A stretch of 64,000 nt of DNA from an uncultured Chloroflexia bacterium (GCA_963775935.1 CAVZKR010000002.1:16929-80928), one strand, 5' to 3'. Numbered from the stretch's first letter, positions 17,963 to 63,584 are shown. The notes: generated by a model from the letters alone, not told the origin. Program-made: numbers and translations.

Positions 17963-18057
17963 GGCTAGAAAATTCAGATGAGCAATTAAAGAAAAGGGGT
18001 ACTTAAAGATTAAATTGTTTTAGAAACATTTTATGTACATAGCAAAAAGGAGTGAAG

Positions 18058-20715: not shown

Positions 20716-20770
20716 TCGTCGATACTACCAGATGCAATAGTTGTCACAATTGCCAGATCGACTGTAAGTA
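20700..20770 (+). pseudogene. Remnant of a PHT beta (Fe-S) subunit gene: first ~25 codons only, start codon lost
   Basis: The frame overlapping the alpha2 stop encodes …TKALVVDTTRCNSCHNCQIDCK…, which matches the N-terminus MKALVIDITRCNGCHNCQIACK of the intact beta at 49950..50768. ACG replaces ATG. The nucleotide alignment to the cluster II alpha-stop/beta-start junction is clear and ends where the 3' end of hyuB begins. Confidence 0.5.
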
Positions 20771-20794
20771 CGCAGGCAATAGGTGTCCTCCATT

Positions 20795-22558: not shown

Positions 22559-22560
22559 TT

Positions 22561-24627: not shown

Positions 24628-24685
24628 GTATATCTCCTTTCCAGAAAAATTGTCTCATATCGCACGCTTTAATAAGCGTATTCTT

Positions 24686-25366: not shown

Positions 25367-25444
25367 GATTCACTCCCCTTGTTTAATCGTTTTTCCTGCT
25401 TTTATATTACTGTCTGCAGTTATGCTCGGATTTCAGCACAGGCT

Positions 25445-28210: not shown

Positions 28211-28464
28211 CCTTCTCTGTTTCTACTCTGGGCTTCGGTTGAGGCGCTATTTCCGAGCCCGTCCGTACTTTAGAGGCCGTCTCTTTTATGGTTACTTCTT
28301 TCTTATCTGTCATTGGCACTATCCCCTTTACCTGTTACTAGTAGCAGAAACTATCATAATATTATTCTGATAAGGTTGGCGCTAAATGATTACGACTACT
28401 AATTTTATCTATTAATCAAGATGTAATTTCAATACGAGTAAAATTAAAGACAAACTTTAAGCTA

Positions 28465-39188: not shown

Positions 39189-39397
39189 TTCATTTACATG
39201 AGAATAACATATATGCGTACGATGCCATAAATTGCTGGTGCATTTAGATTGCTGCTCCTCTTCGCCTTGTCAAAAAAGCGTGACCAGGTTGTGATATTAG
39301 AGTAAGCAATGTGTGACCTCGAGGACTAGCAAGGCAGGCTGACTAAAAAATCACAACGCTGCCTTTTTCGGGTGGGCTTGTACGTAAAAAATAGATC

Positions 39398-39530
39398 TGG
39401 AGCGGGAGACGGGACTCGAACCCGCGACAGCCTGCTTGGAAGGCAAGATTAGTATTTTCCCTGGTTCCAGATTCATTTCCTAGTTTAAGTCCGAAGCTGA
39501 TTGATAACTAGGCAGGAGGTCTATTAATTG
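39398..39530 (-). ncRNA. tRNA-Gly(UCC)-like partial element A: anticodon arm, variable loop, T-arm, 3' acceptor strand and CCA. A homologous ~85-nt 5' extension replaces the D-arm and 5' acceptor strand.
   Basis: The minus strand reads …CTTGC-CTTCCAA-GCAGG-CTGTC-GCGGG-TTCGAGT-CCCGT-CTCCCGC-T-CCA, which matches the 3' half of bacterial tRNA-Gly(UCC) through to the encoded CCA. No GCGGGAG 5' acceptor strand or D-arm lies upstream. A conserved ~28-nt trailer (GATC..TTTT.TACGT.CAAGCC) follows the CCA, and a related copy lies at 48908-49045. Confidence 0.5.
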
Positions 39531-41618: not shown

Positions 41619-41920
41619 TTCCCGCGACTCCTTTAAATTTGACGCCACCTTGCACTTACTCATATACAGTCTTAAAATGCTAACACTTTATTGTGCGGTT
41701 AACTTTGCCAAAGTATCAGATCCTACAGCTTCATTGGGGTCAAGACATTTATAGAACCCTATATCATGTTTATAAACAAAGCATAGCATTTTCTTTGAAC
41801 CTTTCATAGGGTAGCTACCGACACAATGGTCCTTGACAAAATTTTAGTAATATGCGAGCATTGGCTAAGAATAATGTTAGCAACTAAACAAGTTGAATAA
41901 TTATAAGGGGAGGTGCTCTC

Positions 41921-43261
41921 GTGAAGAAAACACAAGTTGCTGGTTTCATTCTGTTCCTCTCGCTCGTAGTCATCTTGGCCGGATTCAGTAATGTCTCGTG
42001 TGCGGCTCCGCCCGCGCCTACACTGAAGCCCATCAAAATTGGCTGGGTTGATTCGCTTACTGGCATGTATTCAACAATAGGAATACCTGCAAAAAAGGGA
42101 GTGGATGCCTACGTCACCTGGCTTAATAAGCAGGGGGGGATAGAAAGACATCCTATAGAGTTAACCACCTACGATAATGAGAGTGATGCCAATAAATCAA
42201 TTCTAGCCCTTAAGAAGGCTGTTGAAGCTGATTCAGTCCATGTGGTAGTAGGTTGTAGTTCCACCGCAATTTCTATGGCAATGGCCCCGGCAGTCGGCGG
42301 AAGCAAAGTTCCTTTCCTCTCAACAACCGGCACGGAATCTTTTGAATTAGCCAATAGAAAAGTTGGTGGAGATCAGCATAAATGGAATTTCAGGCCACAT
42401 GCTGGTAACAGTATCGAAAAAACTTTGAACATAGCCGATTATATGAAAAAGAAGAACATGAATAAGATTGCCTTTTTTACACCAGAGACCAGTTTCGGTA
42501 AATCAAACCGCGATGCTGCACTGGTCGGGTTTCCCAAATGTGGTATCGAAGTTGTTCTTTCGGATACCTATCCTGGAGACGCTACCACATTCGGACCCTT
42601 AATATCGAAGTTGAAGGAAACACCTCAAGTCCAGCTGGCCTGTTGTTATGGTTCGGAAATGGCCAGTGCCCTCGCTTCAGTAGCTATTAAAGAGGCGGGC
42701 TTTGGTGATAAATTACTAATATTCAACACTATTACCGGGGCAGAACAATTGAAGTTAGAGAGAGTATTGAAGGCATACGATGGTCTTCCCGGCATCGTGG
42801 CGGCCGCTGATGTATACGAGAGCATTCCGAATGCCAACATGAATAAGCCTGTTCTTATCAAACTTAACAAGATTTGGGGAGAGATCTATCCAGGTGAGAA
42901 AATAAGAGGCACATTCGATGCAATCGTAATCCAGGGTTTAATCCCTATTGAGGACACTTTCCGTAGATTACTTAAAGCCCAACCCGATATCCTGGACAAG
43001 GATGTAGGTACAATTCGCTCAGCGTTCTGCGATGAGCTTGAGAAATCGCCACTTTACTCTAATGGTACCAATGTGATTGCTCTTTCGCCACAAGACCACG
43101 ACGGTTCGGTCCTTGGTACTACTGAACTACAGGGCAAGTTTACTGGAGGTAAATGGACCTATTTAGGCGGCGATATGTGTGATCCGGTATACGTAAACTT
43201 CATTCAAGACATGGGGCCTAAAGTAGGGTGGACAGGTCCTATTACCAAATTAATGAAATAG
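41921..43261 (+). CDS. ABC transporter substrate-binding protein (LivK / branched-chain amino acid or amide family)
   Basis: 446 aa with a signal peptide and a periplasmic-binding-protein type I fold. First gene of a five-gene ABC operon. Confidence 0.8.
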   Translation: MKKTQVAGFILFLSLVVILAGFSNVSCAAPPAPTLKPIKIGWVDSLTGMYSTIGIPAKKGVDAYVTWLNKQGGIERHPIELTTYDNESDANKSILALKKAVEADSVHVVVGCSSTAISMAMAPAVGGSKVPFLSTTGTESFELANRKVGGDQHKWNFRPHAGNSIEKTLNIADYMKKKNMNKIAFFTPETSFGKSNRDAALVGFPKCGIEVVLSDTYPGDATTFGPLISKLKETPQVQLACCYGSEMASALASVAIKEAGFGDKLLIFNTITGAEQLKLERVLKAYDGLPGIVAAADVYESIPNANMNKPVLIKLNKIWGEIYPGEKIRGTFDAIVIQGLIPIEDTFRRLLKAQPDILDKDVGTIRSAFCDELEKSPLYSNGTNVIALSPQDHDGSVLGTTELQGKFTGGKWTYLGGDMCDPVYVNFIQDMGPKVGWTGPITKLMK

Positions 43262-43319: not shown

Positions 43320-44273
43320 GTGTGGTTTACCAGGTTTTTTAACTCATCCTTTGAATTAACCACTATTTATCGTTACAGGAGTGAGAGAAGACACGCGGTG
43401 GTTGAACGTATATTAGACCCTTTGTTCTCCGGGATTACCTTAAGTTGCATTTACGCGATTATAGGCTATGGCATGATGGTCTTCTTTAGTGTAACCAAGA
43501 TACTCCAGTTTAGTGCCGGCGAGTTTGCCATGCTAGGTGGGATGATTAGTGCTATTCTCTATGCTATCGGCTTACCCCTAACTGTGTCTATAACCCTTGG
43601 TATAATTACCAGTTGCCTCATCAGCATTATTATGTGGCTGGTTTTCCTCCAAAGGCCTGTTGCGCGCCATTATACCACTGATATCCTCATTTTCCTTACG
43701 GTAGGAATTCATCTTCTTATAGTTAGTGTTGCCTTTCTTGTCTGGCAAACAGAGTTTAGGGAATTGCCTTACTTTATCGATGTTGCTCCATTCAAGCTAG
43801 GAGGAACTACTATATCTCCGCAAGCACCATGGATCTGGGGAATAGTACTGTTAATGCTAGTTGGCTTAAGTGTGCTCTTTGGCAGGACACTCTGGGGTAA
43901 AGGGCTCAGCGCATGTGCTATACAACCTGTGGCAGCGAGATTAATGGGCATTAACCCACTGACTATGGCCTTTATCTCTTTTGTCCTGGTTGCCTTACTG
44001 GCAAGTGTTGGTGGTGTGATGTTAACGCCATTAGTAATGACTCAGTATTCTGTGGGAATGGGGTTTACCGTAAAAGGATTTCTAGCGGGGGCGGCCGGTG
44101 GATTAAACAAACCTCAAGGGCCTGTCATAGGTGGCTTGATACTAGGTCTGGTAGAGTCATTTAGTGGTGCTTTTGTTTCTTCTCGCTACATGGTACCAAT
44201 CTCATTAGGCGTGCTTCTTATAATACTGCTTATTCGCCCTCAGGGCATAGTAGGAGTAAAAGAAGAAGTATGA
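43320..44273 (+). CDS. Branched-chain amino acid ABC transporter permease (LivH family)
   Basis: About 8 transmembrane helices. The conserved LivH start region …ILDPLFSGITLSCIYAIIGYGMMVFF… suggests the true start is probably near 43395-43400 (GTG) rather than 43320. Confidence 0.7.
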   Translation: MWFTRFFNSSFELTTIYRYRSERRHAVVERILDPLFSGITLSCIYAIIGYGMMVFFSVTKILQFSAGEFAMLGGMISAILYAIGLPLTVSITLGIITSCLISIIMWLVFLQRPVARHYTTDILIFLTVGIHLLIVSVAFLVWQTEFRELPYFIDVAPFKLGGTTISPQAPWIWGIVLLMLVGLSVLFGRTLWGKGLSACAIQPVAARLMGINPLTMAFISFVLVALLASVGGVMLTPLVMTQYSVGMGFTVKGFLAGAAGGLNKPQGPVIGGLILGLVESFSGAFVSSRYMVPISLGVLLIILLIRPQGIVGVKEEV

Positions 44274-45275
44274 AATGGGACGCTGTCTCAAGTTATAGAC
44301 GACAGCTCAGCTGGGGTGCAGTATGTATTCTGCTAATCGCCCTCCCCTGGATTCTGATGAATCCTTATCTCCATTGTGTCCTAGTATTTATTGGAATATA
44401 TGCCTTGATAGCAACAGGGCTTGGTCTACTGACTGGATACACAGGGCAAGTTTCCTTAGGACATAGTGCTTTTTTTGCCCTCGGGGCATATATTTCAACT
44501 CTGACTACTATACATCTGAAAATTTCACCGTGGCTGGGTTTGCTTTGTGGGGCAGTGGTTACAGGCATTGTCGCTTATTTTCTGGGCAAACCCTTTCTTC
44601 GTATCCGTGGCTTCTATCTGGCTTTGGTGACTTTGACCTTTTCTCTGCTGGTTTATCATCTTATTTCCAGAATGGATTTCATAACTGGCGGTTATGATGG
44701 CATCACGGGTATCCCAAAGTTTTCCATAGGTAGCTTTATATTAAACAAGGATTATCATTACTATTACCTGCTCCTGATATTATTAGCTGCAGCTATTATT
44801 TTCGACAATAATTTGATCAAGGTCCAAAATAGGCCGAAAAATGCGGGCTGCCGATTTGTTTACCGGGGGTAGTGAGGCAGCAGCCAAGTCACTGGGGGTA
44901 GATATAGCCAAGTTCAAGACTCAGATATTTATTATTAGTTGTGTCTATGCCGCAATTGCTGGTAGTGTATTTGCTCACTACATGGGGCATATTCATCCTG
45001 AACCATTCAGCGTTAGTTACTCGATTATGTTTCTGATAATGATTGTTCTGGGTGGCCAACGAAGTATATGGGGTGGGTTAATTGGCGCTATTTTCTATGT
45101 TGTGACAAAAGAAATACTGTATTATGTTACAAAGGGAGCTATAGGGTGGGACCTGCTGATCTACGCCTTGATATTTTTGGCGATTTTAATTTTCTTACCT
45201 TCGGGCTTAGCAGCATTTCCCTCAAGGATATCTGCCCTGTTACCCAAAATACACCACAATAAAGATACAGGCTAA
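44270..45275 (+). pseudogene. Branched-chain amino acid ABC transporter permease (LivM family), interrupted by a +1 frameshift near 44830
   Basis: ORFs 44270..44872 and 44841..45275 are the two halves of one LivM-like permease. The conserved …NLIRSKIGRKMRAADL… sequence is restored by deleting one A in atcAAgg at about 44826-44832. Confidence 0.7.
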
Positions 45276-48880: not shown

Positions 48881-48907
48881 TTTGGCTTGAACGTAGAAAA
48901 CGGATCT

Positions 48908-49045
48908 GGAGCGGGAGACGGGGTTCGAACCCGCGACAGCCTGCTTGGAAGGCATGCTGTCCTAAAAGGAACTGCTTAGATTCAATTTCAAATCGGAGCC
49001 GAAGCCGAGCACTTTCCTAGGCAGTGGGTCACTTTCAGCTCATAT
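48908..49045 (-). ncRNA. tRNA-Gly(UCC)-like partial element B (diverged 5' extension plus a near-identical tRNA-like 3' half and CCA)
   Basis: …CATGC-CTTCCAA-GCAGG-CTGTC-GCGGG-TTCGAAC-CCCGT-CTCCCGC-T-CCA. The 50-nt tRNA-like part is almost identical to element A. The 5' extension is homologous but diverged, with shared blocks CTGCCTAG, GCTTCGG and GAATCT. It has the same ~28-nt trailer. Confidence 0.5.
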
Positions 49046-49339
49046 TTATATATATTTTCGCGCAATTCCTTAAAAATTACAAGAAATATAACTATAATAA
49101 TCTTAGTAAATTTAAATAACATGACGTGGTTTCAAAATGCACAAAAGGATCCTATTGAACAATGCAGGCTTTTGCTACCTCAAGAACATGATTCCAAGGT
49201 AGACGCTTTTCTCAATCCAGTAAACCCCGTCGCTGTACTTAACAGTCTCCTTAATGCGAAGCAATGTCCACAATTATTCCTGTAATTTCCCTGTAGGATA
49301 TATAAAAACAACCTGAGGCTTGCTTTCAATGCATCATCA

Positions 49340-49893
49340 CGGCAGAGAAAAAGTATATAGCTCTTTATGTTTCTGGTGAAACTCACTTTTCATCTGCTCG
49401 ATGTCAGCGGACTTAGAATGACCGTCAAACTCAGAAAAAATGGCATGCGGCCCGTACTTTTTGATGACTCGTTTTATCTCGCTGGTTATTGTATTCAGAG
49501 CTACGTCCCACGATATTCTGACATAGCCGCTTTTCCCCCGGTTCTGCTGATTTCTATCACCTTTAGGGTCCCAGTCAACTCTCTTGAGCGGATAGAGAAT
49601 CCTGTTTGGTGAATAGATGCGCTTCTTATAACTCAGACTGAACGGTGGTATCAGTCCTTCATGGTTGGTTTAAATACTTTGCCACGCGCTTTACTCTGCC
49701 AGGGTTTGAATTCTTCCGGTCTATATTTCCAGTCATAATGCAGTGGCCTGATTCTGACAATCCTGCCATTCTTGATGTCAACCACGGATGAGTTGGCATC
49801 AGCGCTTACTGAACAAAAGCCCAATCCTATGGGATAAGACTTTATTCCATTGCCGGACGACTTCTGCTTTGTTTTCGCCTTAAGTATATTCAC
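49340..49893 (-). pseudogene. Chimeric remnant: PHT-alpha N-terminal ~150 codons (frameshifted at ~49650) fused to a ~25-codon internal fragment of hyuA
   Basis: ORF 49651..49893 encodes the PHT-alpha N-terminus (…DIKNGRIVRIRPLHYDWKYRPEEFKPW…). A +1 shift continues it as …PPFSLSYKKRIYSPNRILYPLKRVDWDPKGDRNQQNRGKSGYVRISWD…KKYGPHAIF, then SADIEQMKSEFHQKHKELYTFSLP*. The last ~70 nt (49347-49412) are about 90% identical to hyuA at 55847-55912. Confidence 0.6.
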
Positions 49894-49949: not shown

Positions 49950-50768
49950 CTATGCTGTTTTATACAGAGCGATATCGCCCACATTGATATCTTTGCTGGC
50001 GTCGATATCCTCCAGCTTCCTGGTAAGATATCCCTTCATCGATACCTCCAGGGAATACTTCCCTGGTTCCTGTCTCTCAAACCAGAAATCACCGAAGTTG
50101 TCTGTCTTCAACGTGGACTTCTTGCCTTTGGCTCCAATCAGGGTAACCGTTGCCCCTTCCAGACATTCATCCACCTCGGGGTCATAGACCGCACCGGCGA
50201 TGAAGTACTTGTTGGGCAGGCCGATGTAGTAGACCCGTGGCTTTGCCTTGTATTCGGGGTGAAGCACTTCACCCTTGGCTATCCACTCTTTGAGGTCTTT
50301 CTCCTCTCCGAAGCGCAGGGCATCGGTAGGACATGCGTCAACACATCTCGGCTCTTTCCAGCCATCATCGAGCAGATGGGCACAGAAGGTGCATTTCTGG
50401 GCGATGTTGAGGTCGCTATTGAAGTAGATGACGCCGTACGGGCAGGCATCGAGGCACTGTCTGGCACCGACGCATTTCTCCGGGTCGATGATGACAATAC
50501 CATCTTCCCGCTTGTAGATAGCCTTGCTCTTGCAGGCGGTGATGCAGGGAGCCTCGTCGCAGTGCTGGCAGATAGTGTGCATGTAGCGTACCCGTACCTT
50601 GGGCACTGTTCCCTGGACCACATCGATGACCTTCTGCCAGAAGTGTCCAGTATCAGGCTGTGGCTTGGCGTAGGGAGTCCAGTCATTGCCGACATGCTCG
50701 TCCTTGCAGGCGATCTGGCAATTGTGGCAACCATTGCATCGGGTAATGTCGATAACTAATGCTTTCAT
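49950..50768 (-). CDS. PHT-like molybdoenzyme small (beta) subunit: 3×[4Fe-4S] ferredoxin domain plus a C-terminal transthyretin/carboxypeptidase-regulatory-like beta-sandwich
   Basis: Cys clusters CNGCHNCQIAC, CQHCDEAPCITAC, CVGARQCLDACP and CTFCAHL…CVDACP. The C-terminal ~90-aa beta domain (…GATVTLIGAKGKKSTLKTDNFGDFWF…KYSLEVSMKGY…) matches the architecture of the beta subunit of Pelobacter transhydroxylase. Confidence 0.8.
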   Translation of the reverse strand: MKALVIDITRCNGCHNCQIACKDEHVGNDWTPYAKPQPDTGHFWQKVIDVVQGTVPKVRVRYMHTICQHCDEAPCITACKSKAIYKREDGIVIIDPEKCVGARQCLDACPYGVIYFNSDLNIAQKCTFCAHLLDDGWKEPRCVDACPTDALRFGEEKDLKEWIAKGEVLHPEYKAKPRVYYIGLPNKYFIAGAVYDPEVDECLEGATVTLIGAKGKKSTLKTDNFGDFWFERQEPGKYSLEVSMKGYLTRKLEDIDASKDINVGDIALYKTA

Positions 50769-50773
50769 GAGTT

Positions 50774-53398
50774 CTATCCACCTCCTAGTAATATTCTTTC
50801 AAGTTTCAAGCCTGATGCCGCGTCGTAGGGGCGGTTGAATGCTTTGGGATATTTCCTTCGCAGTTCGTCCATATCAGCTACTTTTACATCTACCAGGAAT
50901 CCACTCGTCACCATACCGGCACAGTTCTTGGAAGTGGTATTGTGCGGGCAGATGGTATTTATGGCGCCCCCTCTATCGATTTTACCTGGCACTATAGGAT
51001 CATATCGTGAACCATGGTCGACGTAAACAGTGTCTGGCATGATTCTCTCAGTCACGTAGGCTCCACAGAGAACCTCACCTCGTTCGTTGAAGATATTGAC
51101 GATGTCGCCATTCCTAATGCTTCTTTCTTCAGCTGTACTGGGATGAATCCAGGCTGGCTCATAGAGGTATCCATCCTGCCCCTTGACCTTACAGGTTTCG
51201 ATTTCATGGAACCAATTAACGTCGTCAAGCTGAGCATGCACTCTATGCCTTGGGTGATTTGACTGGCAGAGCAGCGGATATTTCCTTGCTCTTTCACTGG
51301 AGATTCTCTCGTCATGCATTTCACTCTTCTCGGCCCAGTGAGGTACGGGAGGCCGCTCCTCATCATCTGGGAAATGTTTCAATAAATCTACAGATTCAAA
51401 CTCTATTTTCCCCGAAGGTGTGGTTAATGGATTCTTCTCCGGGTCTTGATAAAATTCGAACATACCGGCCGGATGCTTTTCCCAATCGGCATCGCATGGG
51501 ACAACATAATACTGTTTCTCTTTAAATTGCTCCCATGTCAACAATCCCTTAGCGGGCACTCCACAATTATCAAAGCCGGTCTTAATCCAATGCTGAATCG
51601 ATTTGCCCTCCGTATACTCTTTCAATAATCCCAGTTTTTGGGCTATAAAACAAACTATTTCATAGTCGCTCTTAGACTCTCCTAGCGGCTCAATACATTT
51701 ATTTTCCAGGTAAACCGTTTCGTAAGTCATACTTTCGGTGTCATCACCTATGTCATCTTCTTCGAATTTGGTATTCACCGGCAGAATAATATCTGAGAAG
51801 AGACAATCGTTCTCAAGCCAAGGGTGCTGAGCTACAAAGAATTCGATTGATGAATGACGATAAGCATCAGCAATTTTATTGCTGTCATTCCAGCAAGTCA
51901 TCAAGCAAGGAGAATCTGTCCATATCATATGAATTGGTTTGCAACCCTTGGCAGGATATTCGTATTTAACAAATTGCTCTGCTGCTGGAGTACATTGAAG
52001 GGAACAGCCATGAATGGTAAATTTGCCTTTTAATATGGCATCATGCACCAGAGTTTTAGTAATAAACTGCTTTGGCAGCTTTATGAACGGGAACGGTGAA
52101 TATCCTCGAAAAGCAGCTCGCACATTAACTGGAGGATTATTGATAATGCTACCCGGAGAAGGTGGATAAGCCGGATGGTCTTCCGAACCGAACACAGCCC
52201 TGTTGATGATAGCAAATGAATGTACTCCGGGCTTACCCAATCCCTGCATCGCCAGAAGTAACACTTCCAATCTTGCTGGCTCGTGGGAGAAAGGTCCGCG
52301 GATATACGGTCCACCCAAGCCATGGATTACTGATGTGGTCTTTGAACCCCATTGTTTTGCCAGAGCAACTATAATTCTAGCAGGCACTCCCGTTTTTTCC
52401 GAAGCCCAATTTGGTGTCTTAGGAACACCATCATCTTTACCAAGTACGTAATACTTAAACTTTTCAAATCCCACTGTATGGGTCGCTATATATTCTTTAT
52501 CGTAAGTACTCTCTTTTAGCCACACGTAAGCAATGGCAAGTTGCAATGCTGCATCGGTATTTGGTCTGATCGGAATCCATTTGTCAGCATGTACCGCTGC
52601 GCCATAGTTCATATCTGGACAAATATAAATTTGTTTTATTCCTAGTTCAGTAAGCCAATAACAATATTTGCTCACCATATCTCCACTGCTGAATCCTCGG
52701 GTTGTTGTAGTTGGATCGCACCCCCAGAACAGAGTCATTTTACTATGTTTGGCAATATCCGAATACATATTTGTGGGATTGGGCATAAGCCCAAAAGGCT
52801 CTCCTCCCCAGGTATGCTTGGCACCCCAGTACCAGCCTTCCCAGCTGTCAGGATTTCTTAGCTGAACTGTACAACCTCCCAGAAGATTGAGAAGCCTGAC
52901 CTGGCAACCGTGAGTTCCATGGACTACTTTTGTCTCACCGTGCCCATCAGCCTGAGCAAAAATGGAATAAGGACCATATTTTTTGATTATCCTCATTATT
53001 TCCTTAGTGATGATATCACCAGCCTCATCCCAAGAAATCCTTACATAACCGCTCTTTCCACGGTTCTGAGGGTTTCGTTCACCTTCGGGATCCCAATCCA
53101 CTCTTTTTAAGGGATAAAGAATTCGATTCGGGGAATAAATGCTTTTCTTATAACAGAGACCGAAGGGGCCGATGGTTGATTTGAGCGGTGGTTCGAAAAC
53201 TTTACCCTTCGCTTTAATTTTCCAGGGTTTAAACTCTGAAGGTTTATATTTCCAGTCATATGGAAACGGTCGAATCCTAATTATCTTACCATCCTTAACA
53301 TCAACAGCCGCAAGATGCGAGCCAATACCCATAGCGCTGAATCCAGTGCTTTTGATTAACGTTTTATCTCCTGCTGTATAATTGTCTTTTTTTACCAT
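50774..53398 (-). CDS. PHT-like molybdoenzyme large (alpha) subunit, paralogue 3
   Basis: 874 aa. The closest paralogue is 18058..20715 (…DSWEGWYWGAKHTWG…, …FWGCDPTTT…, …IYICPDMNYGAAVHADKWIPIRPNTDAAL…). Its stop is 5 nt upstream of the beta-subunit start. Confidence 0.85.
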   Translation of the reverse strand: MVKKDNYTAGDKTLIKSTGFSAMGIGSHLAAVDVKDGKIIRIRPFPYDWKYKPSEFKPWKIKAKGKVFEPPLKSTIGPFGLCYKKSIYSPNRILYPLKRVDWDPEGERNPQNRGKSGYVRISWDEAGDIITKEIMRIIKKYGPYSIFAQADGHGETKVVHGTHGCQVRLLNLLGGCTVQLRNPDSWEGWYWGAKHTWGGEPFGLMPNPTNMYSDIAKHSKMTLFWGCDPTTTTRGFSSGDMVSKYCYWLTELGIKQIYICPDMNYGAAVHADKWIPIRPNTDAALQLAIAYVWLKESTYDKEYIATHTVGFEKFKYYVLGKDDGVPKTPNWASEKTGVPARIIVALAKQWGSKTTSVIHGLGGPYIRGPFSHEPARLEVLLLAMQGLGKPGVHSFAIINRAVFGSEDHPAYPPSPGSIINNPPVNVRAAFRGYSPFPFIKLPKQFITKTLVHDAILKGKFTIHGCSLQCTPAAEQFVKYEYPAKGCKPIHMIWTDSPCLMTCWNDSNKIADAYRHSSIEFFVAQHPWLENDCLFSDIILPVNTKFEEDDIGDDTESMTYETVYLENKCIEPLGESKSDYEIVCFIAQKLGLLKEYTEGKSIQHWIKTGFDNCGVPAKGLLTWEQFKEKQYYVVPCDADWEKHPAGMFEFYQDPEKNPLTTPSGKIEFESVDLLKHFPDDEERPPVPHWAEKSEMHDERISSERARKYPLLCQSNHPRHRVHAQLDDVNWFHEIETCKVKGQDGYLYEPAWIHPSTAEERSIRNGDIVNIFNERGEVLCGAYVTERIMPDTVYVDHGSRYDPIVPGKIDRGGAINTICPHNTTSKNCAGMVTSGFLVDVKVADMDELRRKYPKAFNRPYDAASGLKLERILLGGG

Positions 53399-53792
53399 CT
53401 TACCTCCCTGAGATATTTTAATTTATAGCTAGTTACAGAGCAGCATACGACTGCCCGATTTTATGGGCATTGTTATCAGAACATGCTCTGGAACTGAATC
53501 TGGAGCTGTAGTAGGCATGGAAGAAGGATTTGAGGCAGTACAATCATTGAGAATTATCCTATTTACCAATACCGTGACCATAAGTGGACATTAGAAGAAA
53601 TCATCGCTTTACTTGATGTTAAAATTATTTCAGATTGAAATTGACCCACTACCCAATTTCGACCAACTTTTAGTTCCTTTCTAGGGACTGCTAGCTTCAC
53701 TGTCGTCCCAAAAAAACCTCAAAACCACTATTATTTTAAACAACCTCGTATTGAATATTACTTCCTATGCCATGGTATGATGGAGTCTTCCA

Positions 53793-55544
53793 TCATAAGC
53801 GCTTAGCCCTTAGTCTTTTCGTTGCTTTAAAATCGATTTTCAGGGTATCAGGGTTGAGCACAACTCTATAAACGTCTCGCGCTGCTTTCAATGAAATGAG
53901 TTCATTCTGAACATCCATTTTAACAGCTCTGGGGTCACGCTCTTCCGGAGGACCTACCCCAGCACCACCACCACTCAAGCCAACAAAAATATCGCCACGG
54001 TTTAAATTTTTCTCGACATGGGGTTTCGTAATCTTGATATGTTTAGCCCTTTGTAGGATATAAGCCGTATTGAAAGGAGTAGGGCATCCACCCTGTTGCC
54101 CAGTCGCTTGAGTGTACCATCCATCGCAAGCACCCAGATTTAATATGCAGTCTTCCCCCTCGTTTATACCTTCCCAGATTATACCAGGCGCACCGCGCCA
54201 CCTCCCAGCTCCGACAGAATCAGTCATAAACTCATACCTTTTCACGTCCCAGGGAAATATCACCATGTCTGCCTCAACATCACCCTTGCTAGCGATACCC
54301 ATTGCTCCCAAGTTACAACAGCATTGATATCCATCATACCCTGATACTGCGCCCGCACCACCAGCCGGACCGAATTGGACATTTACATATAACTGTTTTG
54401 TCGTGGGGTCACGTCCAACGAACATAGGGTAGAATTGTTTACCGTAAGGCGTAATGGCATGCTGTGGCAGGGCTTGCGATAGCACCGAAAGGACACATTG
54501 AATAATTAAATTGCCAGTTTGTCCAGGCGCTGATGACATAAGACAGCCCGGTTTACAATTTACCACAGTACCCTCTCGAGCTATGACATGAAAAGGTCTC
54601 AGGCTTCCTTCATTGTGATATGCACTAAGTTCAGAACCCAGGAACAGGAAACTAGCACATAATGTGTCACTTAAGGTCATAGAATAGACCGAATTAATAT
54701 AGCCCTTGCACTGCTCATCGCTATCGGAGAAGTCAAAGGTCGCCTCATCACCTTTAATCGTCAACTTGCACCTGACTGTCACCGGTACATCCAACGTGGC
54801 ACCATCATCATCCAGCTTCGCTTCTGCATAATATATGCCATCGGGCCACTGGGCAATCTCCGCTCTCACTGCCTTTTCGGTACGATTTATCATCTCCTCT
54901 AGGCTAGCAAGTACCGTTTCCTTACCATATTTGTCCAGCAATTCTACCAGCCTTCGCTCAGCTACTACGGTACTTCCCATAAGAGAACGCATCTCTTGCC
55001 GCATGAGGTCAGGCATGCGATTATTACACAGAATGATGTCAAGCATATCCTCTTTCTCCTGGCCCCTTTCCATAATCTTTACTGGCGGAATGTTTAAGCC
55101 CTCCGCAATAGAATCGTAGGAAAGATGATGGGCACCGGGCTGGGCTCCTCCACTTTCCGGGACATGAGTACCCATGCAGCTGAAAAACACCAGCTCATCT
55201 TTATAGAATATTGGCCTAATAAAAACCCAATCAGGCAGATGAACCGCCCCAGCCAGGAAAGGATGATTGGTCAAGAACATATCTCCAGGATATATCTTCC
55301 CTCTGAATTTCTTTAACACCGCCTTGATGGGAAAGGTACTGGATATTAATCGACAGCAAAAACCTTCAGGAATAGCGATAGCCTGGGCCTCAGCATCCCA
55401 TATACCGTAAGCCAAATCATGGAGTGCCACTGTTAAAGGGTTGGTCGTAGTTCTTTCCATAGTCTCACGCATCTCCACACAGACTCTCTGCAGGAAATGC
55501 CATATTGTCGCTATCGTAATCAGGTCTGTCTTTATCATTTTCAT
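53793..55544 (-). CDS. Hydantoinase B / oxoprolinase family protein (HyuB), intact copy in tandem-repeat copy 1
   Basis: 583 aa. It overlaps the upstream hyuA stop by 4 nt, so the two are translationally coupled. Confidence 0.85.
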   Translation of the reverse strand: MKMIKTDLITIATIWHFLQRVCVEMRETMERTTTNPLTVALHDLAYGIWDAEAQAIAIPEGFCCRLISSTFPIKAVLKKFRGKIYPGDMFLTNHPFLAGAVHLPDWVFIRPIFYKDELVFFSCMGTHVPESGGAQPGAHHLSYDSIAEGLNIPPVKIMERGQEKEDMLDIILCNNRMPDLMRQEMRSLMGSTVVAERRLVELLDKYGKETVLASLEEMINRTEKAVRAEIAQWPDGIYYAEAKLDDDGATLDVPVTVRCKLTIKGDEATFDFSDSDEQCKGYINSVYSMTLSDTLCASFLFLGSELSAYHNEGSLRPFHVIAREGTVVNCKPGCLMSSAPGQTGNLIIQCVLSVLSQALPQHAITPYGKQFYPMFVGRDPTTKQLYVNVQFGPAGGAGAVSGYDGYQCCCNLGAMGIASKGDVEADMVIFPWDVKRYEFMTDSVGAGRWRGAPGIIWEGINEGEDCILNLGACDGWYTQATGQQGGCPTPFNTAYILQRAKHIKITKPHVEKNLNRGDIFVGLSGGGAGVGPPEERDPRAVKMDVQNELISLKAARDVYRVVLNPDTLKIDFKATKRLRAKRL

Positions 55545-57606
55545 TCTCTCCGTATAATATAATTTCCATATTCATCAACCTGGCAGTTAAATCCCTTAGG
55601 AAGCACCACAGTAGTTGTTACTTCCTCGACCACCGCCGGTCCTGGGATAACATTTCCAGATTTCAATCTGGAACTATCATAGATTGGCGTCTCTATATAG
55701 CTACCGTCGAAGAAACATTTCCTCTCTCGTTTCAGTGCTTCTGAGGGATCGCTTGTCCCGGCGGTTGTTTTCCTCAGCTCTATCTTTTGTGTCCGAATTG
55801 TAGCTGTTAGCCGTAGGTTACGAAATTCAACTGGAACCCACGGCAGAGAAAAAGTATATAGTTCTTGATGTTTCTGGTGAAACTCACTTTCCATCTGCTC
55901 GATGTCAGCGGAGTTAGTATCTCCTTCAGGAAGAACCATCTCGAGTTCATGATATTGCCCTTGGTATCGAACGTCCGCATATTTGTTAACTATTAAATCC
56001 TCCTTGGATATATGTAATGCCTTGGACTCGTCTAAGGCCTCTGTTGTCATTTCGTGGTATAGCTGGTTCATGGCCTCTGGTCTAGCAGCTTTGACTGGGC
56101 AAATATAAGACCGAATATAGTCACGCCCCATGTTCAGGAAGAACATGCTCCAGGCACAAAAGGAAGCGGCAAATTTCGGGACAATAGTCTTTCGCACGCC
56201 AAGCAGATCTGCTACAAAAACTCCACACAAACCACCACCACCACCGAATGACAGCAGGCTGAAATCCCTGACATCATAGCCCTTCTTGGTTGATATTGAC
56301 GTTATGCCATCTGCCATGTTATGGTTGACTGTGGTGAACATTGCATTTGCCGCTTCTTCAACACTTATTTTCAACGGCTCAGCAATTTTCTTCATGGCTG
56401 ATCTAGCTAACTCAACATTCAGTTTAATTTTGCCGCCACAGAAATTATCGGGTGCGATGTATCCCAGAATTACCGCCGCATCGGTAACTGTGGGCTCTTT
56501 TCCACCCCTTATTATAGCAAGCTGGACCTGGCTCAGCTCCAGCGCTGGACGGTCCAACACGGAGCAGCCCCAGTCGGGTCCAACCAGCCAATGCTCCCTC
56601 CTCCTGCCCCAATACTGATGACATCCGCTACCTTAATCCCTATCCTGTCATCATTCAACCAAGTCGCCGGCCTTTAAACTTACCTGGCCGTCTTTGACTA
56701 GACTGGCATCCCGGGTAGTTCCCCCCATATCACCGGTTATAAAGTTCTGCTCCCCGATAATACTACCAAGGTAAACCGCACCCGCTGGACCAGCTGCAGG
56801 ACCGGAACCGCTTAAGATAGATTGGCTTTCTTACTACCGCTGAAACTGATTGTATATACTGATTGGCTTGCACCATCAAAAGCTGACCTGTGAAGCCAAA
56901 TTTACCCAATTTTGTCTCAAGACTATTCAGATACTTGCCAACAATAGGTCCCAGACTCGCGCTAATAACACAAGTGCTCTCTCGCTCATATTCCCCCATC
57001 TTGGGAAGTATACTACTAGAATAAGTGACAAACACACCTTTGAGCTCTCGCTCACAGATCATGGGCTGCCTTCTTTTCGTTCTCAGGATTGACATATGAG
57101 TTTATAAAACATATCGCAATTGCTTTAATTTTCTGTTTCTTTATCTTCTCAATTACAATTCCAAGTTCATCCTCGTCTATCGGCTTGACTATTTCACCGG
57201 TGTGTTTGGTTTTCTCGTCAACGGTGAACCTGAGATAGCGGGGTACTATTGGTTCATATGGAGGGATCATAGCCTCATACATGGAATGTGTTTCAATCTT
57301 TAGGCAACGGCGCATCTCAATGATGTCTCTGAAGCCTTCGGTTGTAATCATTGCAGTGCGTGCTAACTTCCTTTGCACCAGGGCATTTGTGGCTACGGTG
57401 GTTCCATGCACTATCCATTCAGTTTGCTTCAAGAACTCCTCTGGGGATAGTGAAAAAGCAGCCGCCGCTTCTACCAGTGTATTGATTACGCCCTCGGAAA
57501 AATCGCTCGGGGTGGTCGGCGATTTGAATTCGTGAAGGTTGCCTTTTTCATCCATAACTATACTCTCAGTGAAAGTACCTCCGGTATCCAAACACACTCT
57601 GAACAT
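55541..57606 (-). pseudogene. Hydantoinase A family protein (HyuA), copy 1, split into three ORFs by indels relative to the intact copy at 60661..62721
   Basis: ORFs 57052..57606, 56763..57095 and 55541..56560 are collinear with the intact 686-aa protein from copy 2. Nucleotide differences from copy 2 are almost all single-base length changes in short runs: cccc/ccc at about 56507, cggg/cgg at about 56575, ctt/ct at about 56815, and ggg/gg at about 57065. Confidence 0.7.
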
Positions 57607-58898
57607 ACTATTGCTCCTTTACCTTATTTCTTTTATTGCTTTTCTGTGCTTGGCAATAATAACAAATGGTAAAATCCAGTTTCTCCGCTAAATTCACATC
57701 TATTTTCAGTTTGCGATATAACGTATTTGATCTTATTCCCAATATGTCTCATCTGTTTCCAAAATGCCTTCAAATACTGGTGGGATAGTATAAGCCATAG
57801 TTTTTTCTTATATCAAAACAAACTTTGCTATCCAGTATGGTCCAGTGGATGTCAATATCAATACTTCGTTTTCTGGCTCGCAACCTATTGTATTTTAAAT
57901 CATGCCTAATGCATTGTGTATTGGGTGGCTCCATTGGACAGGGCCGCCATTAGTATGCATACGCATCTGGATGATGCCGTTTTTCCGCTCCAAGATAAAA
58001 TGTTCCTTATATTGTTCCTTGTAATTGTCAAACTATGGTCTGGCAACAAATTGTGGTAATTTCATCTTTCTTTTCATATCATAAACATCCTTTTATGATT
58101 ATCTAATTTGACTCTTGCTTATGTTGGATATTTTTATTTCTTGGATCAGTCCCGCTAAAGTCATGAGATAAAAATACAGACTAGGAGTTTTGAAAGTATA
58201 AACATACTAATGAGCCTGAAACTGTCCAATGTTTGCATGTGTATGCTATTATATCATAAATATTGGAAGGGTCAATAGTTTGTTATGGTCCATAACATAT
58301 TGGCCTTTTGAGAGGAGGAGATAAAGTTGTCCAGATAATACTGCAGAGGTGGCAAATTGCCAATACACCCTATGCGGTTTTTCGGTATTTTACCAAATCA
58401 AGTACTCCATCAGGTTATGGTTAAGGATATCAAGCTCATCCAATTCATCGATGTGCAAGTTCACGAATTGTTCCGGATGCTCAGCTTTGATTGATTTAAT
58501 CCGTTCGACCACAGGTGAATTCCTCTCCACTACTAATGCTGATTCCTTACGTCTCATTCTAACAATATTGTGCAAAGAGGATCTTGTCTCTTATAAGCTG
58601 GACTTGATTTTTTGAAAGCAGATGACCCGACCCCCCAAAAGTGGTCCAGTTATAATGTTAGTCTGAAGATCACAAAACTCTCACTTCATGTGGACCAGTT
58701 TTTGGGGAGCAGATCATCATCACCAAAGTTATCGGTCTTGGCAGATATTTCTTTTGGGAATAAAATCATGGTGTTAATTACAAACCTATCTGAACCAGCT
58801 CAGAACTGTAAGTGTACATTTTATTCGCATTTTTGCTAATTATGAAAAAGCCACAAGAATCTATGTGGTACGGCCCATTTGTGAGTGTAAGGCCTGTT

Positions 58899-60664
58899 TT
58901 AGCTATTAATATGTTTGTTCTCACGTCTTAGAGCTTTTGTGGCTTTACGGTCAATTTCTAAAGTAACAGGTTTCAGGACTACTTTATAAATATCATGCGC
59001 TGCCCTCATAGAGACCAGCTCGTTCTTCACATCCATCCTCACTGCTTCAGGGTCTCGCTCCTCCGGAGGGCCTACCCCAGCACCACCACCACTCTCTGTA
59101 ACAAGTATATCTCCGGCCATCAATTTTTTTTCTAAATGCGGCTGTGTAATATCAATACGCTCAGTACCTCTCGTGATGTGTGATTTGTTGAAAGGAGTAG
59201 GGCATCCACCCTGTTGTCCATTCGCTTGGGTGTAAAACCCGTCAGAACCACCACTAGGGGCAATACAGTCCCCCGACTCATTTACACCCTCCCAGATTAT
59301 ACCAGGTGCACCGCGCCATCTCCCAGCTCCGGCAGAATCAGTCATAAACTCATACCTTTTCACGTCCCAGGGAAATCTCACCATCTCTTCCTCGGTGTCA
59401 GTCTTACTGGCGACACCCATTGTTGCCAAGTTACAACAGCATTGATATCCATCATACCCTGATACTGCGCCCGCACCACCATGTGAACAAAATGAAATAT
59501 ACATATACAACGCATTTGTTCTTGGATCCTTTCCAATGATCGGGCCGGGTCGGGTAACTTACCATAAGGTGCAATGGCATGCTGTGGCAGGGCTTGCGAT
59601 AGCACCGAAAGGACACATTGAATAATTAAACTGCCAGTCATTGCTGCATTCGCTAATGTCAGACAGCCCGGTTTACAATTTACCACAGTACCCTCTCGAG
59701 CTATGACATGAAGAGGTCTCAGGCTTCCTTCATTGTGATATGCACTAAGTTCAGAACTCAGGAACAGGAAACTAGCACATAATGTGTCACTTAAGGTCAT
59801 AGAATAGACCGAATTAATATAGCCCTTGCACTGCTCATCGCTATCGGAGAAGTCAAAGGTCGCCTCATCACCCTTAATCGTCAGCTTACACCTGACTGTC
59901 ACCGGTACATCCAACGTGGCACCATCATCATCCAGCTTCGCTTCTGCATAATATATGCCATCGGGCCACTGGGCAATCTCCTCTCTCACTGCCTTTTCGG
60001 TACGATTTATCATCTCCTCTAGGCTAGCAAGTACCGTTTCCTTACCATATTTGTCCAGCAATTCTACCAGCCTTCGCTCAGCTACTACAGTACTTCCCAT
60101 AAGAGAACGCATCTCTCGCCGCATGAGGTCAGGCATGCGATTATTACACAGAATGATGTCAAGCATATCCTCTTTCTCCTGGCCCCTTTCCATAATCTTT
60201 ATTGGCGGAATGTTTAAGCCCTCCCCAATAAAATCGTAGGCAAGATAATGGGCACCGGGCTGAGCTCCTCCATTGTCCGGGACATGAGTACCCATGCAGC
60301 TGAAAAACACCAGCTCATCTTTATAGAATATTGGCCTAATAAAAACCCAATCAGGCAGATGAACCGCCCCAGCCAGGAAAGGATGATTGGTCAAGAAGAT
60401 ATCTCCAGGATAGATCTTCCCTCTGAATTTCTTTAACACCGCCTTGATGGGAAAGGTACTGGATATTAATCGAGGGGGAAAACCTTCAGGAATAGCGATA
60501 ACCCGGGCCTCAGCATCCCATATACCGTAAGCCAAATCATGGAGTGTAGTTGTTAAAACATTGGTTGCTGTTCTTTCCATAGTCTCACGCATCTCCACAC
60601 AGACTCTCTGCAGGAAATGCCATATTGTCGCTATCGTAATCAGGTCTGTCTTTATCATTTTCAT
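58899..60664 (-). pseudogene. Hydantoinase B family protein (HyuB), copy 2, frameshifted / internally rearranged at ~59500-59580
   Basis: The N-terminal 59378..60664 ORF and C-terminal 58899..59510 ORF align to the intact HyuB at 53793..55544 but are joined out of frame. The junction region differs by more than simple homopolymer indels. Confidence 0.7.
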
Positions 60665-62721
60665 TCTCTCCGTATAATATAATTTCCATATTCATCAACC
60701 TGGCAGTTAAATCCCTTAGGAAGCACCACAGTAGTTGTTACTTCCTCGACCACCGCCGGTCCTGGGATAACATTTCCAGATTTCAATCTGGAACTATCAT
60801 AGATTGGCGTCTCTATATAGCTACCGTCGAAGAAACATTTCCTCTCTCGTTTCAGTGCTTCTGAGGGATCGCTTGTCCCGGCGGTTGTTTTCCTCAGCTC
60901 TATCTTTTGTGTCCGAATTGTAGCTGTTAGCCGTAGGTTACGAAATTCAACTGGAACCCACGGCAGAGAAAAAGTATATAGTTCTTGATGTTTCTGGTGA
61001 AACTCACTTTCCATCTGCTCGATGTCAGCGGAGTTAGTATCTCCTTCAGGAAGAACCATCTCGAGTTCATGATATTGCCCTTGGTATCGAACGTCCGCAT
61101 ATTTGTTAACTATTAAATCCTCCTTGGATATATGTAATGCCTTGGACTCGTCTAAGGCCTCTGTTGTCATTTCGTGGTATAGCTGGTTCATGGCCTCTGG
61201 TCTAGCAGCTTTGACTGGGCAAATATAAGACCGAATATAGTCACGCCCCATGTTCAGGAAGAACATGCTCCAGGCACAAAAGGAAGCGGCAAATTTCGGG
61301 ACAATAGTCTTTCGCACGCCAAGCAGATCTGCTACAAAAACTCCACACAAACCACCACCACCACCGAATGACAGCAGGCTGAAATCCCTGACATCATAGC
61401 CCTTCTTGGTTGATATTGACGTTATGCCATCTGCCATGTTATGGTTGACTGTGGTGAACATTGCATTTGCCGCTTCTTCAACACTTATTTTCAACGGCTC
61501 AGCAATTTTCTTCATGGCTGATCTAGCTAACTCAACATTCAGTTTAATTTTGCCGCCACAGAAATTATCGGGTGCGATGTATCCCAGAATTACCGCCGCA
61601 TCGGTAACTGTGGGCTCTTTTCCACCCTTATTATAGCAAGCTGGACCTGGCTCAGCTCCAGCGCTGGACGGTCCAACACGGAGCAGCCCCAGTCGGTCCA
61701 ACCAGCCAATGCTCCCTCCTCCTGCCCCAATACTGATGACATCCGCTACCTTAATCCCTATCCTGTCATCATTCAACCAAGTGCCGGCCTTTAAACTTAC
61801 CTGGCCGTCTTTGACTAGACTGGCATCCCAGGTAGTTCCCCCCATATCACCGGTTATAAAGTTCTGCTCCCCGATAATACTACCAAGGTAAACCGCACCC
61901 GCTGGACCAGCTGCAGGACCGGAACCGCTAAGATAGATTGGCTTTCTTACTACCGCTGAAACTGATTGTATATACTGATTGGCTTGCACCATCAAAAGCT
62001 GACCTGTGAAGCCAAATTTACCCAATTTTGTCTCAAGACTATTCAGATACTTGCCAACAATAGGTCCCAGACTCGCGCTAATAACACAAGTGCTCTCTCG
62101 CTCATATTCCCCCATCTTGGGAAGTATACTACTAGAATAAGTGACAAACACACCTTTGAGCTCTCGCTCACAGATCATGGCTGCCTTTTTTTCGTTCTCA
62201 GGATTGACATATGAGTTTATAAAACATATCGCAATTGCTTTAATTTTCTGTTTCTTTATCTTCTCAATTACAATTCCAAGTTCATCCTCGTCTATCGGCT
62301 TGACTATTTCACCGGTGTGTTTGATTTTCTCGTCAACGGTGAACCTGAGATAGCGGGGTACTATTGGTTCATATGGAGGGATCATAGCCTCATACATGGA
62401 ATGTGTTTCAATCTTTAGGCAACGGCGCATCTCAATGATGTCTCTGAAGCCTTCGGTTGTAATCATTGCAGTGCGTGCTAACTTCCTTTGCACCAGGGCA
62501 TTTGTGGCTACGGTGGTTCCATGCACTATCCATTCAGTTTGCTTCAAGAACTCCTCTGGGGATAGTGAAAAAGCAGCCGCCGCTTCTACCAGTGTATTGA
62601 TTACGCCCTCGGAAAAATCGCTCGGGGTGGTCGGCGATTTGAATTCGTGAAGGTTGCCTTTTTCATCCATAACTATACTCTCAGTGAAAGTACCTCCGGT
62701 ATCCAAACACACTCTGAACAT
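60661..62721 (-). CDS. Hydantoinase A / oxoprolinase family protein (HyuA), intact copy in tandem-repeat copy 2
   Basis: 686 aa, with the N-terminus MFRVCLDTGGTFTESIVMDE…. Full length relative to 22561..24627. Confidence 0.85.
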   Translation of the reverse strand: MFRVCLDTGGTFTESIVMDEKGNLHEFKSPTTPSDFSEGVINTLVEAAAAFSLSPEEFLKQTEWIVHGTTVATNALVQRKLARTAMITTEGFRDIIEMRRCLKIETHSMYEAMIPPYEPIVPRYLRFTVDEKIKHTGEIVKPIDEDELGIVIEKIKKQKIKAIAICFINSYVNPENEKKAAMICERELKGVFVTYSSSILPKMGEYERESTCVISASLGPIVGKYLNSLETKLGKFGFTGQLLMVQANQYIQSVSAVVRKPIYLSGSGPAAGPAGAVYLGSIIGEQNFITGDMGGTTWDASLVKDGQVSLKAGTWLNDDRIGIKVADVISIGAGGGSIGWLDRLGLLRVGPSSAGAEPGPACYNKGGKEPTVTDAAVILGYIAPDNFCGGKIKLNVELARSAMKKIAEPLKISVEEAANAMFTTVNHNMADGITSISTKKGYDVRDFSLLSFGGGGGLCGVFVADLLGVRKTIVPKFAASFCAWSMFFLNMGRDYIRSYICPVKAARPEAMNQLYHEMTTEALDESKALHISKEDLIVNKYADVRYQGQYHELEMVLPEGDTNSADIEQMESEFHQKHQELYTFSLPWVPVEFRNLRLTATIRTQKIELRKTTAGTSDPSEALKRERKCFFDGSYIETPIYDSSRLKSGNVIPGPAVVEEVTTTVVLPKGFNCQVDEYGNYIIRRE

Positions 62722-63235
62722 ACTATTGCTCCTTTACCTTATTTCTTTTATTGCTTTTCTGTGCTTGGCAATAATAACAAATGGTAAAATCCAGTTTCTC
62801 CGCTAAATTCACATCTATTTTCAGTTTGCGATATAACGTATTTGATCTTATTCCCAATATGTCTCATCTGTTTCCAAAATGCCTTCAAATACTGGTGGGA
62901 TAGTATAAGCCATAGTTTTTTCTTATATCAAAACAAACTTTGCTATCCAGTATGGTCCAGTGGATGTCAATATCAATACTTCGTTTTCTGGCTCGCAACC
63001 TATTGTATTTTAAATCATGCCTAATGCATTGTGTATTGGGTGGCTCCATTGGACAGGGCCGCCATTAGTATGCATACGCATCTGGATGATGCCGTTTTTC
63101 CGCTCCAAGATAAAATGTTCCTTATATTGTTCCTTTTCGGTACTTCTCCTGCTAACATTTTCAACTCCTTTCGTTTTAAACTTTTAACCTTGATCTGCTC
63201 CATCCTGATTACGTATAAGCCGGGGTCTCACCGGG

Positions 63236-63500
63236 GTGAATCTTTTTCCACTTTTTCAATATCTGCTCACGGCTCTCTTTATGATTCGGATCAGGAACAG
63301 GAGCATTTACCGGGCACACTCCATAGCATTGGGAAGACTCATGGGCACCTACACACTCGCTGCACTAATCTGGATCGATAACATAGATTACCTTTCCCTC
63401 GCTAATTGCTCCGTTGGGGCACTCTAACTCGCATGAACCATAGCTAACATAGTCCTCAGTAATTACGTTCTCCCCATTAACTCTCAAACGCTTCCATGAG
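63236..63500 (-). pseudogene. Degenerate 2×[Fe-S] ferredoxin-like ORF with an in-frame TAG and a partly lost first Cys motif
   Basis: The minus-strand translation is …ENVITEDYVSYGSCELECPNGAISEGKVIYVIDPD*CSECVGAHESSQCYGVCPVNAP…, with the stop at the position where Asp/Glu-x-Cys is expected. The second motif is C-x2-C-x8-C-x3-CP, as in Alvin-type ferredoxins. It is not in the ORF track because of the internal stop. Confidence 0.3.
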
Positions 63501-63584
63501 AGCTGCAATAAAAGTGCGCCCACTACTACTATCTTCTGCCAAAGCAGTGGCTGTTTTTAAATCACGCTTTTTCCTTTTTCATTG

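Follow-up and report, generated by a model that had tools for sequence, protein, structure and literature searches.

The locus analysed here raises the question of whether two neighbouring copies of a hyuA-hyuB gene pair, each presenting one intact and one disrupted gene, record reciprocal gene loss in the organism or errors in its assembled sequence. It lies in a 64,000-nucleotide (nt) stretch of DNA from an uncultured Chloroflexia bacterium (GCA_963775935.1, CAVZKR010000002.1:16929-80928), hereafter the window, and all coordinates are positions within the whole window. Copy 1 contains an uninterrupted hyuB (hyuB1) and a broken hyuA (hyuA1), and copy 2 a frameshifted hyuB (hyuB2) and an uninterrupted hyuA (hyuA2). 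A preliminary description of the locus had reported this complementary pattern, which is indeed present in the sequence as judged from open reading frames (ORFs), Pfam and alignment, and had offered three explanations for it: reciprocal pseudogenisation, sequencing or polishing insertions and deletions (indels), and gene conversion homogenising the hyuA half. Our results indicate that the locus probably consists of two essentially intact HyuA/HyuB pairs overlaid by consensus indel errors in the assembly; the lesions, we infer, are missing from the real DNA and arose through imperfect polishing. By contrast, both the duplication and the gene conversion that homogenised it are real, if ordinary.

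All hyu genes in both copies lie on the minus strand in the order upstream region-hyuA-hyuB, and hyuA overlaps hyuB by 4 nt (ATGA) at 55541-55544 in copy 1 and at 60661-60664 in copy 2; the two genes are predicted to be translationally coupled in both copies and in relatives. The product of hyuB1 matches the Pfam Hydantoinase_B family (PF02538) over its full length with 375.5 bits. That of hyuA2 scores 160.4, 262.7 and 87.3 bits against Hydant_A_N, Hydantoinase_A and Hydant_A_C, for which the gathering cut-offs are 25.2, 22.9 and 21, and its homologs of 685-689 amino acids (aa) are covered to 100%. As had been described, hyuA1 is split into three ORFs and hyuB2 is frameshifted; hyuB2 falls into two ORFs (Table 1). 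In hyuB2 the frame changes near 59555 (APYGK / VTRPGP), which is equivalent to -1 or +2 nt and falls in the diverged, non-repeated part of the gene. The PF02538 family span is covered whole across the two frames, and one added base is enough to restore a full-length HyuB with no stop.

The copies share a near-identical tract in which a gapped alignment finds exactly eight differences, all confined to 705 nt at 56505-57209 and flanked, up to the tract edges, by identical sequence of 1055 nt (left) and 811 nt (right). Under uniform placement such clustering has P = 6.8e-4 (simulation), and the hyuA1 cluster sits at the centre of the longest exact repeat in the window. The differences had been described as single-base length changes in short runs; this holds for four of the five insertions, which do lengthen runs, but not for the insertion at 56665 nor for the three transitions. 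Once the five inserted bases are removed, and only then, hyuA1 shows the three HyuA domains. Three differences from hyuA2 then remain, at aa 133 (T in copy 1, I in copy 2), at aa 298 (R in copy 1, W in copy 2) and at aa 178, the last being synonymous. Position 133 is Thr in all 61 homologs compared as well as in hyuA1, and Ile (ATC, window 62324) in hyuA2; copy 2 either has a real substitution there, which may be damaging, or contains an error. At position 298 copy 1 has Arg, and copy 2 and most homologs have Trp.

In curated real bacterial pseudogenes, 300 insertions have been counted against 396 deletions (696 indels), of varied sizes and with deletions dominant in length (PMC6054270). Measured against that spectrum, five insertions out of five have a probability of ~0.015, and the ten out of ten uncompensated +1 events of the window one of ~2e-4. 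Five indels, every one a 1-nt insertion, against three substitutions, packed into 705 of the 2571 nt of the tract, are unlike neutral decay, for which insertions and deletions of mixed sizes and far more substitutions than indels would be expected, and hyuA1 does not resemble a genuine pseudogene in this respect. This counts against reciprocal pseudogenisation.

A second line of evidence comes from a gene unrelated to hyuAB. The PadB/ArrA-like molybdoenzyme gene at 25446-28313, located in unique sequence, carries four uncompensated 1-nt insertions (28206, ~27324, ~26124 and ~25862), plus a compensated insertion/gap pair at 28264/28256, 8 nt apart. When it is compared with ortholog L008 (81% nt identity over 2.86 kb), the length differences are single bases inserted in the window only. 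The corrected product has 954 aa with no stop, is as long as the orthologs P0121 and P0124, and is 89.8% identical to the metagenomic P0121; orthologs of the reconstructed protein show 91, 84, 83 and 80% identity. Private amino-acid changes number 6 in the window lineage versus 12 in P0121, and the corrected product deviates at 1 of 313 family-invariant columns, equal to the control. Because four real frameshifts would be expected to relax constraint and no relaxation is seen, these insertions are best read as consensus errors, and the gene would thus present the lesion type of hyuA1 in an unrelated gene that is not decaying, as expected of consensus indel errors. It is placed between an NrfD-like gene (28465-29355) and an Fe-S gene (24686-25366).

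Replication slippage is unlikely for several of the insertions, since the inserted base does not copy its neighbour (T[C]G twice, at 25862 and 56665; C[T]G, ~26124; G[A]G, 28206). The LivM-like branched-chain amino-acid permease gene at 44270-45275 is also split, its match to BPD_transp_2 being divided between two successive frames (profile positions 5-146 and 151-268); this split is read from the Pfam coordinates, and a tblastn search with the fused LivHM protein of relative L006 did not resolve the frameshift. Every frame change in the molybdoenzyme and LivM-like genes is in the direction of a +1 insertion, as are the five in hyuA1. Counted from the events in these three genes, the apparent error density of the window is about one per 5-9 kb.

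The third line of evidence concerns hyuB2. HyuB1 and corrected HyuB2 were polarised with 8 outgroup HyuB proteins, which provided 158 invariant columns. Corrected HyuB2 has no private deviation at any of them, and HyuB1 has eight, including P63C, D130E, A365T and R429I. This comparison shows that hyuB1 is the more derived copy although it is intact, and that hyuB2 is the better conserved one; hyuB2 as the decaying copy is ruled out. Since hyuB2 carries no sign of decay, the frameshift in it is an error or else of extremely recent origin. The relaxed constraint of a genuine pseudogene appears in neither disrupted gene, hyuB2 having 0 of 158 deviations and hyuA1 only three substitutions, one of which keeps an invariant residue. 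A separate feature of HyuB1 is the density of private non-synonymous changes at conserved positions in 55278-55449, where PP is replaced by CC (aa 63-64) through four base changes within 5 nt (55354-55358). This derived patch could reflect neofunctionalisation, micro-conversion from an unseen paralog, or decay.

Taken together, sequencing or polishing indels are the best-supported of the explanations offered earlier for the frameshifts, given the four like insertions in the non-decaying molybdoenzyme gene, the position of the cluster at the repeat centre and its all-insertion 5:3 spectrum. In long-read assemblies, residual indel errors concentrate in repeats after short-read polishing (PMC8812927), and residual errors that mimic pseudogenes have been described (PMC8812927, PMC12007338). 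The five hyuA1 insertions would then be residual single-base consensus errors in the middle of a long exact repeat, the setting in which reads are hardest to place and polishing is least dependable, and the hyuB2 frameshift would be one further sporadic assembly error. The organism would in that case have two essentially intact HyuA/HyuB pairs.

Several observations weigh against this explanation. The errors are uneven: one stretch of 705 nt holds five and another of 2.9 kb holds four, with ~45 other genes intact; a uniform random-error model is rejected by the clustering of the frameshifts, and an error model requires a locally poor consensus. hyuA2 is intact, though an unpolished repeat centre should put errors in copy 2 too. 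At least one difference in the cluster, that at aa 133, is probably a true difference between the copies or else a copy 2 error, and it fits an unconverted island of real, older divergence. Genuine gene decay occurs nearby, at 49338-49872 and 63212-63556, and the hyuB2 frameshift is in the opposite direction (-1) and in unique sequence. External comparison adds no corroboration: an exact DNA pattern spanning the 56812 indel had no match among metagenome contigs, and exact protein look-ups of HyuA2 and HyuB1 had none either, with no close strain in the searched collections. Relatives found by a genome-contig scan reach only 54-55% identity, and the best HyuA homolog in a set of 5.8 billion proteins is 72% identical.

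Reciprocal pseudogenisation would mean that real frameshifts killed hyuA1 and hyuB2 and that the cell relies on HyuA2 and HyuB1, whose genes stand 5 kb from each other and belong to separate transcription units. We consider this unlikely. It takes the lesions as they stand in the sequence; several hits in one dead gene are expected of real pseudogenes, and real decayed remnants lie close by, at the two positions named above. A dN/dS (ratio of non-synonymous to synonymous divergence) of ~0.7 in the recently homogenised part of hyuB also suggests relaxed constraint on redundant copies, and the aa 133 difference would represent real divergence within the cluster. However, this explanation is disfavoured by the better conservation of hyuB2, the supposedly functional hyuB1 being the copy with the eight private changes, and by the fact that hyuA1 differs from hyuA2 by only three substitutions beyond its insertions. 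It also leaves aside the like lesions that occur four times in the molybdoenzyme gene, and a pair split between the copies would forfeit the translational coupling of hyuA and hyuB.

It is also conceivable, if quite improbable, that the +1 events are assembly errors and the -1 frameshift of hyuB2 is real and very recent, so that copy 1 would be intact and copy 2 would have a dead beta subunit. The direction of the hyuB2 lesion differs from that of all ten +1 events and equals that of a frameshift at ~49655 in a certainly real molybdoenzyme remnant, and the lesion lies outside the exact repeat. Against this, corrected hyuB2 shows no relaxed constraint, so the mutation would need extreme recency; an assembly prone to insertions can produce deletion errors as well, and at the error density given above a single frameshift within 1.8 kb would be no surprise. 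Least credible of all is a real mutation shower, in which error-prone repair synthesis during conversion would have left a cluster of frameshifts and transitions in ~700 nt of the recipient copy. Although the cluster is tight inside an otherwise perfect conversion tract and conversion-associated mutagenesis in yeast is rich in frameshifts, the yeast signature is mainly -1 in runs and not +1, which counts against it, and the same-type insertions in the unique genes 25446-28313 and 44270-45275 would be left unexplained.

What the preliminary description had called a 5.1-kb tandem duplication is a direct repeat of 53809-58020 and 58927-63135 with a period of ~5.1 kb, seen by ORF listing, repeat finding and blastn self-alignment (94.8% identity over 4226 aligned columns, 6567 bits, E = 0, far above chance). 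The period thus stands, but the arrangement is not head-to-tail, because 906 nt of unrelated spacer intervene. The spacer has no similarity to the rest of the window and its ORFs have no match in Pfam; by window similarity and Pfam, no mobile element or gene remnant was found in it or in the shared 414-nt upstream region. A terminator-like hairpin follows hyuB2 at 58868-58851 (terminator scan). The promoter and terminator scan otherwise returned generic consensus matches only, and no Rfam family was found across the entire window.

Conversion homogenising the hyuA half, the third of the earlier explanations, is borne out for the history of the repeat. A gapped global alignment of the copies resolves four zones of identity (Table 1), with sharp edges at 55449/55450 and 58020/58021. 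Identity above 99% in hyuA and its upstream region and divergence at the hyuB C-terminus had both been noted earlier and agree with our values; overall hyuB identity, given then as 90-95%, is 87.1% as measured here. By the Nei-Gojobori method, dN/dS between hyuB1 and corrected hyuB2 is 0.032/0.047 over codons 1-330 and rises to 0.21/0.85 from codon 400 onwards, and hyuA1 and hyuA2 differ by three substitutions in 2061 nt, a dS of ~0.001. Such abrupt steps in identity and dS, non-coding DNA included, support gene conversion between paralogs. Because identity is stepwise and dS differs by segment, we regard the copies as old paralogs that have undergone conversion, and the alignment is most simply read as an old duplication (dS ~0.85) followed by homogenisation of its 5' part, in two or three nested events at the least. 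The dS of 0.85 in the 3' third of hyuB excludes a simple recent tandem duplication, as does the absence of a second spacer copy downstream of copy 1.

Under this scheme, two old paralogous hyuA-hyuB operons in direct orientation had their 5' parts repeatedly homogenised. An older conversion took in roughly the first two thirds of hyuB and left the original divergence in the 3' third; the last one brought hyuA, the promoter region and 95 nt at the start of hyuB to essential identity. The near-identical tract is, we infer, the most recent conversion tract.

Table 1. Features of the hyuAB repeat, of the control genes and of the region downstream of copy 1.
Feature	Position	Strand	Details and basis
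Copy 1 unit (upstream region + hyuA1 + hyuB1)	53809-58020	-	blastn self-alignment; edges from global alignment
Copy 2 unit (upstream region + hyuA2 + hyuB2)	58927-63135	-	blastn self-alignment; edges from global alignment
Spacer between copies, unrelated, without recognisable gene	58021-58926	.	906 nt; window similarity search, Pfam, terminator scan
hyuB1, intact HyuB-family subunit	53793-55544	-	583 aa; Pfam PF02538 1-519/519, E 4.7e-112
hyuA1, HyuA-family gene broken by five 1-nt insertions	55541-57606	-	ORFs of 184, 110 and 339 aa; ORFs, alignment
hyuB2, frameshifted HyuB-family gene (one net change near 59555)	58899-60664	-	ORFs of 428 + 203 aa; tblastn, three-frame inspection
hyuA2, intact HyuA-family subunit	60661-62721	-	686 aa; Pfam PF05378, PF01968, PF19278
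3' third of hyuB	53809-54560 (copy 1)		77.1% identity, many indels
hyuB middle zone	54561-55277 (copy 1)		97.8% identity, no indels
hyuB zone	55278-55449 (copy 1)		89.5% identity
Near-identical tract: first 95 nt of hyuB, whole hyuA, 414 nt upstream	55450-58020 vs 60570-63135		99.7% identity, 2571 nt
Copy 1 insertion	56505		CCC to CCCC
Copy 1 insertion	56576		GG to GGG
Copy 1 insertion	56665		C between T and G (T[C]G), lengthens no run
Copy 1 insertion	56812		T to TT
Copy 1 insertion	57063		GG to GGG
Transitions between copies	56713, 57073, 57209
PadB/ArrA-like molybdoenzyme gene, unique sequence	25446-28313	-	four frames; ortholog alignment
LivM-like branched-chain amino-acid permease, split near 44820	44270-45275	+	context ATCAAGGTCC; Pfam BPD_transp_2
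AhtL-like molybdopterin oxidoreductase large subunit, downstream of copy 1	50774-53398	-	Pfam
Fe-S subunit, downstream of copy 1	49950-50768	-	Pfam

The surroundings of the repeat are rich in related genes. A third hyuAB pair, with aa identities of 52% and 47%, lies at 20795-24627. The hyuB of 622 aa at 39795-41663 (minus strand) is an orphan, 66% identical to HyuB1 and lacking an upstream hyuA partner; it adjoins a cluster of periplasmic-binding-protein and ATP-binding-cassette transporter genes. Three AhtL-like large subunits stand in tandem at 12578-20715. From this gene content, 12578-29355 and 49950-63135 appear to be a paralog-rich catabolic island. In the window and in relatives L006 and L009, hyuAB adjoins AhtL-like/PadB-like molybdoenzymes, Fe-S and NrfD subunits and transporters, the link to an AhtL-like enzyme in L006 being like that downstream of copy 1. 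L006 and L007 each have a single, intact, overlapping hyuA-hyuB pair.

Decayed genes are found on either side of the repeat. At 49338-49872 (minus strand) an AhtL-like molybdoenzyme is represented by a truncated and frameshifted N-terminal piece (aa 2-156), abutted by 79 nt of hyuA sharing 95% identity with 55839-55917. A 71-nt segment at 48884-48954 shares 91.5% identity with 39375-39445, which follows the orphan hyuB on its downstream side. Together, 49338-49872 and 48884-48954 probably mark where a further hyuAB/molybdoenzyme unit was deleted. The gene immediately upstream of copy 2 (63212-63556, minus strand), which resembles that of a small 2x[4Fe-4S] ferredoxin, has an in-frame TAG at 63365-63367 (IDPD*CSECVG), two ligand Cys changed to Tyr (YVSYGSC) and no clear start codon, and looks genuinely decayed.

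Other irregular gene calls were seen in the window and in one relative. ORFs 5481-6275 and 4160-5584 (minus strand) overlap by ~100 nt, and coding potential is high upstream of the first start of the downstream ORF; the overlap at 5481-5584 may be another +1-direction frameshift, in a protein to which no function is assigned. The Pfam match of the periplasmic binding protein at 41921-43261 (446 aa) stops at profile position 252 of 343, and the FAD-linked oxidase at 123-1601 (492 aa) matches FAD-oxidase_C at the last 32 positions only; these partial matches may represent divergent domains or compensated frameshifts. On L009 (ERZ25039477 contig_18946), the AhtL-like gene at 3621-6307 and hyuA at 12932-14999 are each called as two adjacent ORFs. 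Error or mutation may underlie those splits, and genes of these families are thus split in another assembly too.

At face value this locus resembles reciprocal gene loss after duplication, and its main worth is one of caution. Because +1 insertions also break normally selected genes here, pseudogene calls in this assembly are untrustworthy without the reads, and the locus would better be annotated as two probably functional HyuA/HyuB pairs. The near-identical copies are likely a recombination hotspot. If the disruption were real, the result would be an unremarkable pair of young pseudogenes. In that event the 2.6-kb near-identical tract would permit repair of hyuA1 by conversion, or deletion or amplification of the 5.1-kb unit. 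That one heteromeric enzyme is built from subunits of two operons, with the +1 cluster recording a conversion-associated mutation shower, strikes us as distinctly doubtful.

Both components of our interpretation have known counterparts. Long-read or low-coverage assemblies with residual indel errors likewise show single-base frameshifts in otherwise conserved genes, enriched in a long exact repeat, but homopolymer-length errors are the commonest kind described, whereas the errors proposed here are insertions and several lie outside homopolymers. Concerted evolution of tandem bacterial paralogs similarly makes near-identity give way sharply to old divergence along a single gene pair, in tracts that take in upstream non-coding DNA; in this regard nothing about the locus is unusual, and its tracts number at least two or three, nested and of differing ages.

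The genes themselves are predicted to encode alpha and beta subunits of the ATP-dependent hydantoinase/oxoprolinase superfamily. Like the two-subunit enzymes of this group (caprolactamase, PDB 6YRA; N-methylhydantoinase, PDB 7HK5), they have the complete Pfam architecture, PF05378 + PF01968 + PF19278 in one subunit and PF02538 in the other, and adjacent alpha and beta genes with a 4-nt overlap, as in relatives. HyuA2 aligns end to end with the caprolactamase subunit CapA (6yra_A, E 9e-129), and HyuB1 with CapB (6yra_B, E 2e-61). However, the NCBIfam equivalogs NF050156 and NF050157 score 612.7 and 272.0 bits, and since this is far under their cut-off of 1000 the proteins belong to the same superfamily but are not caprolactamase itself. 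Because hyuAB pairs are linked to AhtL-like/PadB-like molybdoenzymes both here and in relatives, their setting suggests a role in the anaerobic catabolism of an aromatic or cyclic compound rather than in classical hydantoin or oxoproline hydrolysis. Acetophenone carboxylase (Apc, PDB 5L9W) and acetone carboxylase (Acx, PDB 5SVB/5M45) are of the same superfamily, with E values for HyuA2 of 2e-93 against Apc gamma and 2e-72 against Acx beta. They differ in that these scores are much weaker than those of the caprolactamase/hydantoinase group, that the ApcC, ApcA and ApcD equivalog cut-offs are not reached, and that no gene for a small gamma or epsilon subunit was seen beside either hyuAB copy. 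Paralogous subunits nevertheless coexist in one complex in Apc and Acx, so extra hyuB-like genes need not be redundant.

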